9,797 nucleotides of DNA from Leptolyngbya sp. BC1307 (GTDB lineage: Bacteria; Cyanobacteriota; Cyanobacteriia; Phormidesmidales; Phormidesmidaceae): NCBI RefSeq assembly GCF_002286735.1, contig NZ_NRTA01000085.1, forward strand, positions 1 to 9,797, in the 5' to 3' direction. Of the stretch, positions 4,175 through 9,797 are shown piece after piece; the stretch's first letter is position 1; every line of letters starts with the position of its first letter. Position numbers and translations under genes: made by a program. The notes beneath the pieces are model-generated. The model worked only from the letters and a program-made list of their open reading frames with translations, had not been told where the DNA came from and searched no databases.

Positions 4175-5284
4175 ATGGCTACATCTGAAGCCCGCACCAC
4201 TAAAAAGAGCGCTACCGCACAGGGCGCTGAAGCAAAAGCTAAAGCAGCTAAAACGACTGCCAAGACGGCAGCTACGACGACTAAAACTAAAAAGACAGCC
4301 AAGCGTAAAGCCAAGCCGCTGTACACCACTGACGCAGTGCGTGCCTATCTACATGAGATTGGCCGCGTCCCTCTGCTCAGCCACGAAGATGAGATCGTGC
4401 TGGGTAAGCAGGTACAGCAAATGATGGCGCTGCTAGAGATCAAAGCAGGGCTGGTTGAACAGCTGCCAGAAGACGATGCCTCTGAAAATAATATTTCTCA
4501 GGCAGAGTGGGCGGCCGCCGCTGGCATGAGCGAAGATGAGCTGAGCAATCACATGCGTCGCGGTCAGCGCTCCAAGCACAAAATGATTGAGGCCAATCTG
4601 CGGCTGGTAGTCGCGGTTGCCAAGAAGTACCAAAAGCGCAACCTGGAGTTCTTAGATCTGATTCAAGAAGGCACTCTCGGCTTAGAGCGTGGGGTAGAAA
4701 AGTTTGACCCGATGAAGGGCTATAAGTTCTCTACTTACGCTTACTGGTGGATTCGTCAGGCGATTACGCGGGCGATCGCTCAGCAGGCGCGCACAATTCG
4801 CTTGCCGATTCACATCACCGAAAAGCTCAACAAGATCAAGCGCGTTCAGCGGGAGCTATCGCAGACGTTAGGGCGCAGCCCCAATGCGGCTGAGATTGGT
4901 GAAGAGCTAGAACTAGAGCCCAAACAGGTACGCGAGTATCTTTCGATTGCCCGTCAGCCAATCTCTCTAGATGTGCGCATCGGTGATAACCAGGATACTG
5001 AGCTGCAAGATCTCTTAGAAGATGACGGTGCTTCGCCCGAAGACTACACCGTGCAGCAGTCTCTACGCCAGGACATCTTTAAGATGCTCTCAGAGCTGAC
5101 GCCTCAGCAGCAGGAAGTGATCAACCTGCGGTTTGGCTTAGCCGATGGCAATCCGCTTTCTCTGGCTAAGGTCGGTCAGCGCATGAGCATCAGCCGTGAG
5201 CGCGTCCGTCAGCTAGAGCAGCAGGCGCTGAAGCACTTGCGTCGTCGGAAGGCTTCGATCAACGGTTATTTGGCTGCGAGCTAG
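4175..5284 (+). CDS. RNA polymerase sigma-70 factor, RpoD/SigA family (cyanobacterial group-2-type)
   Basis: Region 1.2: DAVRAYLHEIGRVPLLSHEDEI. Region 2: MIEANLRLVVAVAKKYQKRNLEFLDLIQEGTLGLERGVEKFDPMKGYKFSTYAYWWIRQAITRAI. Region 3: TIRLPIHITEKLNKIKR. Region 4.2: LSLAKVGQRMSISRERVRQLEQQALKHLR. I could not confidently assign SigB, C, D or E subtype. Confidence 0.93.
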   Translation: MATSEARTTKKSATAQGAEAKAKAAKTTAKTAATTTKTKKTAKRKAKPLYTTDAVRAYLHEIGRVPLLSHEDEIVLGKQVQQMMALLEIKAGLVEQLPEDDASENNISQAEWAAAAGMSEDELSNHMRRGQRSKHKMIEANLRLVVAVAKKYQKRNLEFLDLIQEGTLGLERGVEKFDPMKGYKFSTYAYWWIRQAITRAIAQQARTIRLPIHITEKLNKIKRVQRELSQTLGRSPNAAEIGEELELEPKQVREYLSIARQPISLDVRIGDNQDTELQDLLEDDGASPEDYTVQQSLRQDIFKMLSELTPQQQEVINLRFGLADGNPLSLAKVGQRMSISRERVRQLEQQALKHLRRRKASINGYLAAS

Positions 5285-6252: not shown

Positions 6253-6987
6253 CTATTTTTTGATCTGCTGTGCGAACCAAAGAGCGGCTTTCCCGTTCGA
6301 TTCTTGCGCCGTTTTCTGAATGGTGGCTTCTAGCAAGGTCACGGATAATCCCGTCAGGGCGCTAGAGGCTTCGCAGGTTTGGTAGGTGCCGGTTTCATCC
6401 AGTCGGAAGATGAAAACGCGGCCACCTCTTATGTCGATTACCCAGTATTCTGGGATTTTTAATGAGGCGTAGAGTTTTTTCTTTTCGTCTAAATCTGTGG
6501 CGAGCGTTGTGTCTGAAACTTCGCCGATAAAGTCGGGCACAGGCCACTTGTTTAAATCAACTTGTCGCTGTTCTCCCGGCTCCCATCTTGGATAATTTTC
6601 ACCCAAGTAAACGACGAGGTCGGGAGCGCCTGCCTTGAGCGGTTTTTTCTCTAGTAGGCAACGACCTAACGAGGTAAAGGTTTGGTCGGAGTTTTGTGCA
6701 AACCATGCAAACAGCAGGGCTATAAACAGGTCGCAAATGGCTGCGTGGTTAATGCCTTCCCAACCCATATCAACGACCAAGACTGAGTTTTCATCGAAAA
6801 ATAGTCGCCAGTGCTTTTCATCGAGTTCAAGTTCGTCACGGCGATCACAATACTCTTCCCAAGTAGCGGGTTGCCAGCGGTAAAGTGGGGTTGGCTGTGG
6901 GCTAGGGTCAGAGGGATAAGTGACGCTGAGGGCAGTCATGGGTGGGCGTTTTGATAAGGCCGATGCTTTAAGCGTAGCAAACTTCAA
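6253..6987 (-). CDS. Uma2-family (DUF820) PD-(D/E)XK putative endonuclease
   Basis: Typical Uma2 features are present: PLYRW..WEEY near the N-terminus, APDLVVY, FIGEVSD (the D...E.S core) and KIPEYWVIDIRGGRVFIFRL. The true start may be the internal ATG at 6939 (MTALSV...), giving 228 aa. Confidence 0.85.
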   Translation of the reverse strand: MKFATLKASALSKRPPMTALSVTYPSDPSPQPTPLYRWQPATWEEYCDRRDELELDEKHWRLFFDENSVLVVDMGWEGINHAAICDLFIALLFAWFAQNSDQTFTSLGRCLLEKKPLKAGAPDLVVYLGENYPRWEPGEQRQVDLNKWPVPDFIGEVSDTTLATDLDEKKKLYASLKIPEYWVIDIRGGRVFIFRLDETGTYQTCEASSALTGLSVTLLEATIQKTAQESNGKAALWFAQQIKK

Positions 6988-7066: not shown

Positions 7067-7492
7067 ATGGCTGACCCTGTAACGTTTACGGCTAGCGCGA
7101 TCGCGAACCTCGCCTTTCAAGAATTCTTGCAAACGAGCGCTGGCGAGCTGGCAAAGAAGTTTTCGGCAGCGGCCATTGCGAAAATGGGAGAGTTGCGTCA
7201 GATGATATGGAACCGATTGCAGGGTAAGAATGCAACGGCTGAGATAGCTTTGTCACAGGCGGAAAAGGGTTATGAGGGGTCAATTGAGATTGTCTCGACC
7301 TTTTTGAGTGTGGAGATGCTAGATGATGAATTTGCGGAGCAGGTGAGGGCAATCGCCCAGGAAATTCATGCGGGCAAACTGTTAGACCAAAGCAGTATGG
7401 TGCAAAACAACAGCGACAATGCTACTGGCTATCAGGTTAAGAATGAGGGCGGTGAGAACTACATGGGAAATATCACCATCCACAAGACTTGA
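7067..7492 (+). CDS. Small predicted all-alpha protein with an N/Q/G-rich C-terminal tail; candidate effector or adaptor module of the downstream STAND NTPase
   Basis: 141-aa ORF containing one HIP1 site (7097). A hydrophobic/amphipathic N-terminus (MADPVTFTASAIANLAFQEFL) is followed by helix-like heptad-ish segments and the tail QNNSDNATGYQVKNEGGENYMGNITIHKT. It is in the same reading frame as 7493-9277, separated only by TGA. I recognise no enzymatic motif. Confidence 0.65.
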   Translation: MADPVTFTASAIANLAFQEFLQTSAGELAKKFSAAAIAKMGELRQMIWNRLQGKNATAEIALSQAEKGYEGSIEIVSTFLSVEMLDDEFAEQVRAIAQEIHAGKLLDQSSMVQNNSDNATGYQVKNEGGENYMGNITIHKT

Positions 7493-9277
7493 GTGGAGTC
7501 GTCTGACAGAGATCGGACAAAGTTTGCTCGCTCAACCGGAACGCCTCAGAATTTACCACGCAGTGGGGCGGTGACGTTTGTTGGGCGTGAGCAAAAGCTA
7601 AAAGACCTTCATGCGCGGCTTCAGTCAGGGAGCCGCCTTGCGATTACAGCAATTTCTGGGATGGGCGGCATTGGGAAGACGGAACTGGCTTTGCAGTATG
7701 CGATCGCGCAATTCCAGTCAGGCTATTACCCCGGCGGTATTTACTGGCTGCGGGCGAGGGGCCAAGAGATTGCAACGCAAATTACGACCTTTGCGCAAAT
7801 GAACCTGAGGCTGACGCTGCCGGAGGGAGAAATTGACAAGCAGATTCAGCACTGTTGGCAATATTGGCCTGAAGGCGATGTGCTGGTTGTGATTGACGAT
7901 GTAACGGATTATGGGGCGATTAAACCCCACCTACCACCTTCAGATTCTCGGTTCAAGCTGCTAATCACCACGCGCTTGAATTTTGGGCGGAGTGTGGAGA
8001 ATTTTGCGATTGAGGAATTGGATGAAGAGAGTGCCCTGGCGATGGTGGAAGGCATTGTGGCGGATGGACGCATTCAAGCGCAGTTGGCAGATGCGAAGGC
8101 ACTGTGTCAGTGGGTGGGCTGCTTGCCCTTGCGTCTGGAGTTGGTGGGACGGTATCTAGCAGATGATTTGGATTTGTCAGTTCAGGAACTTTTGGCAGAG
8201 TTGGAGGAGACTCGGCTGGATGCTGAGGCACTGCAAGCAGTGGAAGCTGGGATGACGGCTGATCTGGGAGTAATTCAGGCGCTAGAGTTGAGCTGGCGGG
8301 AGCTGAGTGGGCTAGAACGAGATTTGGCCTGTTTGCTGGGGATGTTTGCGGTTGCGCCGATTCCTTGGGCACTGGTAGAAAAGTGTTTGGCTGAAGTAGA
8401 TGCCAAGAATTTGAGGAAGGCAAGGCAGAATGGGTTGTTGCATCGCAGCTTGCTGAAGCGAGTGGGCGACAATCTCTATCAGCTACATCAAATTGTTCAA
8501 GAGTTTTTTCGGGTGAAACTTAATCAACAAATCAAGCAGGGTGACGCTATCAAATCATCGTTTTGTGGTGTACTCGTAGAAGTTGCGCAAAGCATAGAAT
8601 ACAGTCTCACGCTTGCCCAAGCAAATGATGTTAGAGGAGCCATTATTCATTTAGAAGAATTAGCAAATTGCTGGGCTGATAGCCTGAATGACGAAGCATT
8701 GAAAGAGCCATTCACAGGGCTCGGCTATTTTTATAAAGGTCAAGGGATTTATGTCCTAGCATTGTCTTGGTATTTAGATTGCTTGAAACAAACTCAGAAC
8801 AGATTTGGTGAGACTCACCCCGATGTGGCCGCTAGCATGGATAATTTGGCCAACCTTTATAGCGTCCAAGGCAAATATAGAGCAGCAGAGCCAATGCATG
8901 TAAAAGCGTTAGCAATGAGAAAGCAGTTGTTAGGTGAGACTCATCCCTCTGCAGCAACTAGCTTGAATAACTTAGCCAATCTCTACTACCACCAAGGCAA
9001 GTATGCAGCGGCAGAACTACTGTATGTAGAAGCATTAGCGATGTGTAAGCAGTTGTTAGGTAGGGCACATCCTAATGTAGTCACCAGCCTGAATAACTTA
9101 GCCCATCTCTACAATGTTCAAGGCAAATATGAGGCGGCGGAACCGCTGTATACACAAGCGTTGGCGATAGGTGAACAGTTGTTAGGCGAGGCCCATCCCT
9201 CTATGGCCACCAGCCGATGCAATCTTGGTGTTTTATATCACGAGCAAGAAAGTTACTACTTGAGTGTTGTGCTCTGA
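7493..9277 (+). CDS. NB-ARC (AP-ATPase) STAND NTPase with C-terminal kinesin-light-chain-type TPR repeats; the N-terminus depends on a GTG start or TGA read-through, and the C-terminus appears truncated by an IS insertion
   Basis: Motifs: FVGRE..L lead-in, Walker A GMGGIGKT (7658-7681), Walker B VLVVIDD (7880-7900), LLITTR, and the GLPL-type motif GCLPL (8117-8131). These are followed by 42-aa repeats of the form HP..A.S.NNLA.LY..QGKY..AEPLY..ALA....LG. There is no in-frame ATG before the Walker A. The last repeat breaks at LYHEQ|ESYYLSVVL*. Confidence 0.85.
   Translation: MESSDRDRTKFARSTGTPQNLPRSGAVTFVGREQKLKDLHARLQSGSRLAITAISGMGGIGKTELALQYAIAQFQSGYYPGGIYWLRARGQEIATQITTFAQMNLRLTLPEGEIDKQIQHCWQYWPEGDVLVVIDDVTDYGAIKPHLPPSDSRFKLLITTRLNFGRSVENFAIEELDEESALAMVEGIVADGRIQAQLADAKALCQWVGCLPLRLELVGRYLADDLDLSVQELLAELEETRLDAEALQAVEAGMTADLGVIQALELSWRELSGLERDLACLLGMFAVAPIPWALVEKCLAEVDAKNLRKARQNGLLHRSLLKRVGDNLYQLHQIVQEFFRVKLNQQIKQGDAIKSSFCGVLVEVAQSIEYSLTLAQANDVRGAIIHLEELANCWADSLNDEALKEPFTGLGYFYKGQGIYVLALSWYLDCLKQTQNRFGETHPDVAASMDNLANLYSVQGKYRAAEPMHVKALAMRKQLLGETHPSAATSLNNLANLYYHQGKYAAAELLYVEALAMCKQLLGRAHPNVVTSLNNLAHLYNVQGKYEAAEPLYTQALAIGEQLLGEAHPSMATSRCNLGVLYHEQESYYLSVVL
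8807..9248 (+). repeat. Tandem 126-bp (42-codon) TPR-encoding repeats: three full units plus a half unit
   Basis: Units start at 8807, 8933, 9059 and 9185 (GGTGAGACTCA..., GGTGAGACTCA..., GGTAGGGCACA..., GGCGAGGCCCA...) with an exact 126-nt period. DNA identity is roughly three quarters by eye. A more degenerate unit precedes them (~8690-8806). Confidence 0.85.
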
Positions 9278-9797
9278 CGGTAGAAAAATAATTGAGGCGT
9301 TATCTAGCGAGTCATGCAGGCACCCCCTTATTCTGCTTGTCAAACAATTTGGCAAACACCTGCGACGCCGATTCACCCTGTTCAAGACAGTCATGAGCAA
9401 AGAGGATTAGCTTTTCTATCAGCGCTTGCGATTGCTGGCGACAGACCTGCCCGATGGATTGTGTGAGCTGGGTAGGGCGCTTGCCCGGAGCCTTTGTCGG
9501 GGGTGGCAAGCAAGCCAAGTGCAAGATTGAGTAAGCCACGAACACCAACGTCCAATGGGTTTGAATGGATTCAAAGGTTCGCATCCGATACTCATCAAGC
9601 CCGAGATATTGCTTTCCATCTCGATAAAAGGTTTCTATCGGCCATCTTTGTAAATATTTGGCGAGCACCTGTTTGGCTGACCAGTCAGCGCGATTGGTCA
9701 GCAGCACAGCGTAAGTCCCGGTGAGCTGTGCAGTTTCAAAGCTAATCACTAAACGCAGCTTGCCAAAGCGGGGAATTCGGCAGCAGAAGGTAAAACA
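9249..9797 (-). mobile_element. Partial second insertion sequence (IS4/IS701-like) that runs off the window; its near end abuts the broken TPR repeat
   Basis: The TPR periodicity and consensus end abruptly after 9248 (expected ...CAAGGCAAATAT, observed ...CAAGAAAGTTAC). A transposase ORF on the minus strand starts 63 bp further on. The terminal repeat cannot be verified because the other end is outside the window. Confidence 0.55.
9312..9797 (-). CDS. DDE transposase, IS4/IS701-like, C-terminal part (5' end lies beyond the window)
   Basis: The frame is open from the window edge (...CFTFCCRIPRFGKLRLVISFETAQL...), so the GTG at 9749 is probably not the real start. It contains a full Y(2)R(3)E(6)K signature: YLQRWPIETFYRDGK. 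The stop codon is at 9312-9314. Confidence 0.85.
   Translation of the reverse strand, partial: CFTFCCRIPRFGKLRLVISFETAQLTGTYAVLLTNRADWSAKQVLAKYLQRWPIETFYRDGKQYLGLDEYRMRTFESIQTHWTLVFVAYSILHLACLPPPTKAPGKRPTQLTQSIGQVCRQQSQALIEKLILFAHDCLEQGESASQVFAKLFDKQNKGVPA

Follow-up and report, generated by a model that had tools for sequence, protein, structure and literature searches.

How is the second of two genes translated when its frame begins directly behind the stop codon of the first and no start codon is conserved there? This question is raised by contig NZ_NRTA01000085.1 of Leptolyngbya sp. BC1307 (assembly GCF_002286735.1), analysed over its 9,797 nucleotides (nt) and called the window in the following. 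A small effector-like open reading frame (ORF1) is separated by one TGA from ORF2, which encodes an NB-ARC-TPR protein, the putative sensor. The sequence-only reading, made earlier from the letters of this DNA, had described one 737-codon frame with a single TGA, and sequence and translation agree: 7067-9277 has 737 codons and a single internal stop, the two frames are collinear with a spacing of 0 nt, and positions 7481-7501 are CAC AAG ACT TGA GTG GAG TCG. Comparison with related loci points to programmed read-through of the stop, which would yield abundant free effector together with a little effector-motif-sensor fusion; we assign this explanation a probability of about 0.55. The elements of the junction are:

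7067..7492, forward strand: ORF1, ATG start, 141 amino acids (aa), ending with TGA 7490-7492 (ORF list and translation)
7493..9277, forward strand: ORF2, GTG start, 594 aa, in the same frame as ORF1 (ORF list and translation)
7490..7492, forward strand: in-frame stop TGA, following base (+4) G; position conserved in 26 junctions
7493..7500, forward strand: spacer GTGGAGTC, 8 nt from stop to hairpin, containing the non-conserved GTG
7501..7518, forward strand: RNA hairpin of GUCUG (7501-7505), loop (7506-7513) and CGGAC (7514-7518), from RNAalifold and covariation
7493..7573, forward strand: linker codons 1-27, VESSDRDRTKFARSTGTPQNLPRSGAV, coding in the frame of ORF1 according to substitution bias and 3-nt indels

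Forty-seven genome loci and 66 metagenome loci were compared (L001 and following), plus the loci of individual proteins. Class A comprises loci of the window type with a zero-spacer in-frame junction, class B the canonical two-gene type; the class-A counts refer to 26 distinct, non-identical junctions, and 45 class-B loci served as controls for the stop context. Class A was found in Leptolyngbya, Phormidesmidales, Stenomitos, Synechococcales, Leptolyngbyaceae, Mastigocoleus, Moorena, Myxacorys and unclassified metagenome-assembled genomes, thus in several cyanobacterial orders. Judged from these 26 sequences, the recurrence of a same-frame effector/sensor junction without spacer is far beyond chance. 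The syntenic orthologues L001, L002 and L003 (78-95 % identity), in which the neighbouring sigma factor and PHP genes are kept, have a stop at the same place, reading TGA GTG, TGA CTG and TAA CTG, respectively. Since these orthologues originate from independent assemblies, the stop is not an assembly error. The identity of the stop varies at the conserved position: TGA in 23 junctions, TAG in two (L041, L044) and TAA in one (L003). Because the stop was kept across lineages, the free effector is expected to be the main product.

The context of the class-A stops is biased as well. TGA was present in 23 of 26 class-A junctions versus 13 of 45 class-B loci (Fisher p = 1.3e-6), a C at position +4 in 20 of 26 versus 9 of 45 (p = 3.6e-6) and a T at this position in none of 26 versus 17 of 45 (p = 1.2e-4), in tests which, like the shuffle controls for the hairpin given below, ignore the shared ancestry of the loci. 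The remaining class-A junctions have G (five) or A (one) at +4. UGA is the leakiest stop in bacteria, and UGA-C is the weakest tetranucleotide in E. coli; the termination context at class-A stops is probably weak. A leucine codon directly behind the stop is never TTR, though replacing CTG by TTG would leave the amino acid unchanged and provide a start codon, which suggests a selection against T at +4 and not for a start. Natural read-through of UGA amounts to 3-5 % in the Qbeta coat gene and to 1-6 % in B. subtilis cat-86 (PMC13517186).

Behind the stop, all 26 junctions have a spacer of 8 nt with the consensus CTRGAGTC, followed in every class-A junction by a helix of 5 base pairs (bp) with a loop of 8-9 nt; in the window a sixth pair, A-U, is possible. 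RNAalifold predicts the 5-bp helix unguided. In the alignment, held in register by the removal of one loop nucleotide each from L039, L047 and L048, 129 of 130 helix cells (99.2 %) are paired versus 84.8 % in shuffles, and none of 500 shuffles reached the observed value. Sliding the partner strand by one to three columns lowered the pairing to 21-48 %. Fourteen helix cells are changed on both sides. The pair 13-28 occurs as U-A, C-G, A-U and G-C, the pair 15-26 as C-G, G-C, U.G, A-U and U-A. The amino acids encoded across the hairpin variants differ (SSDxDRT, SPAGEQA, SSASGSD, SSDSAPD, PSGGAPI, SAGGAPP), and the third, synonymous base of codon 4 covaries with the second base of codon 8. Eleven cells are G.U, an indication of pairing in the sense-strand RNA. 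A covariance model (R1) built from the junctions was run over 525 kb of related loci and retrieved the class-A junctions plus three other matches: an unnoticed junction in L029 at 8171, a fused variant (L120) and a weak, sub-threshold chance match in L025. Rfam held no family matching the junction hairpin. With the first base of the stop taken as +1, the hairpin starts at +12; the same start position is listed for the pseudoknot of Moloney murine leukemia virus (MoMLV) and for the stem-loops of Venezuelan equine encephalitis virus and Colorado tick fever virus, and UGA CUA is the type II context of alphaviruses (PMC13517186). A candidate pseudoknot would join a loop GGGG to a CCCC located 8-11 nt past the stem, with the variants CGGCA/UGCUG in L039, CGGC/GCCG in L048 and GAGG/CCUU in L029. 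An unrestricted duplex test gave a mean z of -0.65, the position-restricted test a combined p of 5.7e-6 on energy and 0.13 on helix length, suggestive of a pseudoknot extension in many loci.

Read-through of the stop would join the domains on its two sides:

7091..7372, forward strand: predicted helical bundle, ORF1 residues 9-102 (AlphaFold2 model from alignment A1)
7397..7483, forward strand: C-terminal G/N/Q-rich motif MVQNNSDNATGYQVKNEGGENYMGNITIH, ORF1 residues 111-139, resembling a bacterial amyloid signalling sequence (BASS), kept across homologues
7589..8164, forward strand: NB-ARC domain of ORF2, residues 33-224 (Pfam PF00931, E = 9.5e-12)
8816..9256, forward strand: TPR repeats of ORF2, array shortened (Pfam TPR_10/TPR_12)

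For Leptolyngbya sp. BC1307, a hypothetical protein with exactly the ORF1 sequence is on record. It could be assigned to no family of Pfam, NCBIfam or PADLOC, PADLOC gave a generic TPR match only on the window locus, and searches against the PDB yielded no match by sequence and no significant one by Foldseek (best E = 0.35). By architecture and context, ORF1 resembles a helical effector of the Bell type that bears a BASS motif at its C-terminus. Its N-terminus MADPVTFTASAIANLAF, preceding the bundle, has an acidic residue at position 3 followed by a hydrophobic helix. This beginning, MAD-PVTFTASAIANLAF, agrees with the Bell signature, in which position 2-3 is acidic and the N-terminal helix hydrophobic (Dyrka et al. 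2020, bioRxiv 10.1101/2020.01.06.895854). In the AlphaFold2 model, the predicted local distance difference test (pLDDT) values of helices 9-102 lie mostly at 85-91 per block, with 70 for residues 21-30, and the tail of residues 107-141 is unstructured (pLDDT < 50). The tail fits in composition and length, being G/N/Q-rich, the BASS description of Dyrka et al. 2020.

In class-B loci the effector ends in a variable tail, and a short spacer, in many cases containing a GGTAAGG-like ribosome-binding sequence, separates its gene from the ATG of the NLR gene. The class-B NLR has an N-terminus of its own of ~110-140 aa, which begins with MTDPI and bears a second copy of the C-terminal motif of the effector; in L007, for instance, the effector motif is NNSDNARGWQTKVEGGTAYIGEIH and the N-terminal motif of the NLR MTQTNSDEVRAFQTAVSGGTVQIG. 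In class A, the sequence (L/V/I)-(E/Q/K)-S-S follows at once and in frame after the stop, FxGR is reached at codons 24-34 and, in NB-ARC loci, Walker A lies 156-174 nt past the stop. Class-A sensors have neither an N-terminal domain nor an amyloid motif. ORF2 of the window starts with VESSDRDRTKF... and arrives at FVGRE after 28 residues, with no BASS motif in between; its Walker A, GMGGIGKT, is located at 7658-7681. As far as the sequence tells, the window sensor would gain a BASS motif only via read-through of the stop. Across the class-A stop, the distance from the BASS core to FxGR is 48-52 aa, with one outlier of 64, and in class-B sensors 37-56 aa; the fusion would therefore hold the motif in its customary position relative to the NOD. 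Among class-B pairs, about half are in frame 0 versus one third expected, and many have no second stop in the short spacer; examples of in-frame pairs are L051-L053, L061-L063, L065 and L067 (e.g., TGA CTC GCC ATG...).

We propose the following course of events. Most ribosomes would terminate at UGA 7490-7492 and release the free 141-aa effector, made up of a Bell-like helical and probably membrane-attacking domain and a putatively amyloid-forming BASS-type tail. A few ribosomes would decode the UGA by a near-cognate tRNA and go on, favoured by the weak context, UGA followed by G or C and never by U, and by the hairpin 8 nt past the stop. Their product, a fusion of ~737 residues with the order Bell - BASS - linker - NB-ARC - TPR, would be the sensor. 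Its TPR/NOD part may sense a trigger and oligomerise, and the clustered BASS tails could then nucleate a cross-beta fold that templates the abundant free effector and leads to cell death. A single frame would in this way set the stoichiometry of sensor to effector and keep both motifs identical. Among the possibilities that the sequence-only reading had listed was a genuine arrangement giving much effector and little sensor or read-through fusion, and the comparative data favour this one. Its description of the junction itself was correct; the hairpin, the logic of the amyloid motif and the C-terminal truncation of the sensor, described below, had escaped it.

Several points weigh against programmed read-through. 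The occurrence and efficiency of read-through, amyloid formation and the output in cell death are all what we infer from sequence. Structured stimulators of read-through are, to our knowledge, established for eukaryotic ribosomes and not for bacterial ones. With its 5 bp the hairpin is smaller than known stimulators usually are, and in the window it is thermodynamically ordinary (-6.7 kcal/mol, z = -0.45). The pseudoknot is unsupported in the window (p = 0.19) and in L008 and L078 (~0.8). The GTG codons 1 and 27 of the window ORF2 could act as starts. The window ORF2 is without the C-terminal TPR cap, as the last 80-250 residues of L002, L003, L010 and L118 are missing, and the class-A sensors of L006, L008, L020, L021 and L047 are affected by frameshifts or stops. 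The shared ancestry of the loci, as mentioned, adds to these points.

The first alternative is termination-reinitiation on the abutting codon, from which a separate sensor would result, starting with Met-Glu-Ser-Ser and devoid of the amyloid motif. The sequence-only reading had put its stress on the GTG next to the stop. The window, L001 and L006 do have a GTG abutting the stop, CTG can serve as a weak start, and Bell/NLR genes often form tight pairs, 57 % being at most 10 bp apart and 42 % overlapping. Over the 26 junctions, however, the codon behind the stop is mostly CTA or CTG, GTG occurs in these three loci only, and GTA, ATA, CTC and GAG occur once each. In 12 of the 26 it is CTA, CTC, GTA, ATA or GAG, and neither ATG nor TTG was found at any. 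Coupling of stop and start would call for a conserved start overlapping or abutting the stop, and a start-type codon follows the stop in 3 of 26 junctions. The start-creating synonymous change from CTG to TTG was, as said, never seen, the resulting sensor would lack the motif that class-B sensors bear, and a hairpin at +12 has no known role there in bacteria. On this comparison the abutting GTG is incidental, no start codon is conserved and the stress laid on it was misplaced; reinitiation is an unlikely explanation, if still one to be reckoned with. Other signals for an independent start were looked for. The window sequence has no GGAG-type Shine-Dalgarno sequence upstream of 7493, and a scan for promoters and terminators gave no match between ORF1 and ORF2. 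A Shine-Dalgarno sequence in the spacer, GGAG in CTGGAGTC, was rejected, being not conserved (CTACAGTC, CTAAAGTC) and having no start at a suitable distance. Ribosome hopping was considered and discarded; by eye, take-off and landing codons around the hairpin match in the window (ACT...ACA), but not consistently in L078, L010, L021, L041, L039, L044 and L048.

Internal initiation, for instance at codon 27 (GTG 7571), which directly precedes FVGRE, would turn the stretch behind the stop into an RNA element for stability, processing or protein binding. That ORF2 has no ATG before Walker A and no Shine-Dalgarno sequence had been stated before and holds true; its only start-type codons (ATG, GTG or TTG) in this part are GTG codons 1 and 27. 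A GTG at codon 26 or 27 is found in the window, L001-L003, L006, L008, L078, L021 and L117, and many cyanobacterial genes do without a Shine-Dalgarno sequence. This GTG is absent in L010, L041, L048, L116, L118 and L119, where a canonical start before Walker A is missing or follows only after FVGRE. L010, L041, L048, L116 and L118 have no in-frame ATG, GTG or TTG at all between stop and Walker A, and their sensor frames are long: 793 codons in L010, 850 in L041, 765 in L048 and 835 in L118, each with a natural C-terminus, and at least 423 codons in L116, open up to the contig end. The called starts in L116 (1083), L118 (898) and L119 (2773) are the methionine inside Walker A, GMGGIGKT, 169 nt past the effector stop. 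Class-A sensors are systematically mis-annotated in public data, because the gene calls start inside the P-loop. In addition, the 20-25 codons upstream of the GTG evolve as protein-coding sequence. Substitutions at first, second and third codon positions past the stop number 20/9/35 in the first ten codons and 41/40/113 around NLPRSG, a linker motif conserved as protein, and length differences among relatives are multiples of 3. The sequence past the stop evolves as coding in the frame of ORF1. Internal initiation is thus improbable.

A further alternative regards the sensor half as non-functional in this genome and the junction as a relic, with only the free effector, or nothing, of importance. 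It arises from the far end of ORF2, where similarity to the orthologues ends at residue 588 of 594 (...HEQ, then ESYYLSVVL and the stop; BLASTP references L002 with 667 aa, L003 with 780, L118 with 835 and L010 with 793). At least 80 C-terminal residues are missing, and directly downstream of the shortened frame lies a remnant of a mobile element:

9312..9749, reverse strand: IS701/IS4-family transposase gene fragment (Pfam DDE_Tnp_1, NCBIfam transpos_IS701; last ~70 profile positions only)

The frameshifts in other class-A loci point in the same direction. Against a relic, ORF2 is still an open frame of 594 codons with intact NB-ARC motifs. L001 is cut at the same residue, but the sequence flanking it there is unrelated and includes a full DDE transposase; since both share the truncation point with different flanks, the short sensor form has persisted. 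A relic would also leave the conservation of the junction in lineages with intact sensors unexplained. We consider this alternative to be of low probability, although decay does affect this genome in part.

Fused relatives exist, and they bear on the last alternative. An exhaustive search of representatives returned few long proteins, among them P0224 (967 aa) and P0234 (957 aa), single chains of Bell-BASS-NB-ARC-TPR with 42-50 % identity; the architecture predicted for the read-through product hence occurs naturally. That such a single-chain gene was interrupted through an error of sequencing or assembly, or very recently by a nonsense mutation, can practically be discarded in spite of these relatives, as all close relatives, which were assembled independently, share the stop, and so do 26 diverged junctions, where it switches between TGA, TAA and TAG at one position. 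Both possibilities had been raised by the sequence-only reading. A search with ORF1 gave 427 homologues, of which the best 120 stand alone without exception and measure 137-195 aa, and a junction-spanning protein search revealed no close fused homologue of the window protein among the 120 matches listed; the high-coverage matches inspected in it were class-B NLR N-termini with their own motif. The orthologue alignment that had been suggested as a check shows no sense codon in close relatives. The stop is the norm; a sense codon, GAG, was seen exactly at its position in L120. There, 1501-2682 encode a Bell-like and BASS-like protein (P0251) fused to a GUN4 porphyrin-binding domain, the junction reads CAT GAG CTG AAG TCA TCG GGA GGG GTT CCG ACA AAG, and four of the five hairpin pairs are formed. 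GUN4-like C-terminal ends were also observed in P0232 and P0330.

The junction is not confined to one effector or one partner. In L029, positions 7784-8205 carry a different, seemingly unrelated small protein of ~126 aa (MDPITVATIAL...KLAEKIGFVFQGGYNPVKIEKFEL), followed by the same stop, spacer and hairpin and then by an NB-ARC gene; a canonical class-B pair lies 3.7 kb away in the same locus. This second effector family has 116 homologues, nearly all of 115-149 aa and none above 204 aa, and profile comparison of the two families gave a probability of 37 %. The family carries the same junction with new compensatory hairpin variants:

L124: TGA CTC CAG TC GCCGG...CCGGC, downstream a 208-codon ORF, not an NTPase
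L125: TGA CTA CAG TC GTCGG...TCGAC, downstream an 892-codon nSTAND-type NTPase
L127: TGA CTA GAG TC GGCGG...CCGCC, downstream NB-ARC

Altogether the partners behind the junction are NB-ARC-TPR proteins, GGFGKS-type NTPases (L039, L044, L047), an nSTAND-type NTPase and, in L009, a non-NTPase domain, therefore the junction links effectors to non-NLR partners, too. In L009 (1929-2336), the sequence past the junction (...EIILFLASAPDGLQRRDREFREIESGL...) contains no NTPase and resembles the region behind the motif in P0216 and P0306; P0216 also has a C-terminal TIR-like part. We tentatively suggest, at slightly less than even odds, a portable cyanobacterial recoding cassette of leaky stop, 8-nt spacer and hairpin or pseudoknot, by which NLR-type sensors would be made as rare extensions of an amyloid-tailed effector in a gag-pol-like manner. 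Both effector families and the class-B NLR N-termini begin nearly identically with M-(A/T/-)-D-P-(I/V)-T or MTDPI, which may be an N-terminal signature or reflect a common origin of the N-terminal helix. In the cultured strain Leptolyngbya sp. PCC 6406 (L122, 3001-3400), one protein of the second family has no junction or sensor downstream (TGA CCA GCG TAG...) and is apparently an orphan effector.

The surroundings of the junction are variable. Between a conserved PHP-domain gene and the effector gene, the window contains a Uma2-family endonuclease gene (6253-6987, reverse strand), L001 a nucleotidyltransferase/HEPN pair (4178-4952) and L002 a lone nucleotidyltransferase gene (4566-4910), so that this position looks like a small variable or defence-island slot. 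At the opposite end of the window from the fragment described above, 175-1332 hold a complete IS4/IS701-like DDE transposase gene of 385 aa; the region is therefore rich in insertion sequences.

The closest known systems are the Bell/BASS-NLR amyloid signalling pairs of filamentous bacteria (Dyrka et al. 2020, bioRxiv 10.1101/2020.01.06.895854) and the antiphage system Bab/Agp of E. coli, which gives functional support to the arrangement (Ibarlosa et al. 2024, bioRxiv 10.1101/2024.11.07.622273). The window shares with Bell/BASS-NLR pairs a helical protein of ~140 aa with a hydrophobic N-terminal helix, an acidic position 3 and a G/N/Q-rich tail of ~25-30 aa, and, the host being a filamentous cyanobacterium, the placement of the effector gene directly before a collinear NB-ARC-TPR gene. 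The class-B relatives represent the canonical layout with the matched motif on the NLR N-terminus. The window sensor, in contrast, lacks an N-terminal motif and an N-terminal domain as well as a conserved start; it continues the effector frame past a single conserved stop and a hairpin. Neither Dyrka et al. 2020 nor Ibarlosa et al. 2024 mention stop codons, read-through or an in-frame junction, and a full-text literature search for read-through together with cyanobacteria, NB-ARC and amyloid yielded no relevant paper. With the all-in-one Bell-NLR proteins P0224 and P0234, the would-be read-through product has the domain order Bell - (BASS) - NB-ARC - TPR in common, whereas the window frame is broken by TGA 7490-7492, a stop maintained across lineages. 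A hairpin shortly behind an in-frame UGA is also known from selenocysteine recoding, where UGA acts together with the selenocysteine insertion sequence (SECIS). This was rejected for the junction: TAA (L003) and TAG (L041, L044) occupy the same site, the hairpin is far smaller than a SECIS, and Rfam gave no match.

Nearer in design are the viral read-through systems: the Qbeta coat/A1 protein, gag-pol of MoMLV with UAG, 8-nt spacer and pseudoknot, and UGA-C with a stem-loop in alphaviruses and coltiviruses (PMC13517186). As in these, a leaky UGA is followed by C, often as UGA CUA, a covarying structure begins at +12, and one frame would supply an abundant short and a rare extended product, the latter being a proposal from sequence. 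Unlike the viral cases, the junction belongs to a chromosomal gene of a bacterium, the hairpin has a mere 5 bp, and the pseudoknot is only a candidate. The known amyloid-signalling NLR systems comprise either two genes whose motifs match or single chains; the window and at least 25 further loci point to a third solution, in which a maintained stop and a hairpin within one frame could yield effector and sensor from one message and set their ratio. It is plausible that immune genes of bacteria make use of a structured, conserved cassette for read-through. If this is real, cellular genes of bacteria would provide an uncommon example of programmed read-through with a conserved RNA element, reused before different types of sensors. 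It would correct a widespread mis-annotation of sensors, whose starts are placed inside the P-loop or at arbitrary codons, and it could account for how the motifs of sensor and effector stay matched.

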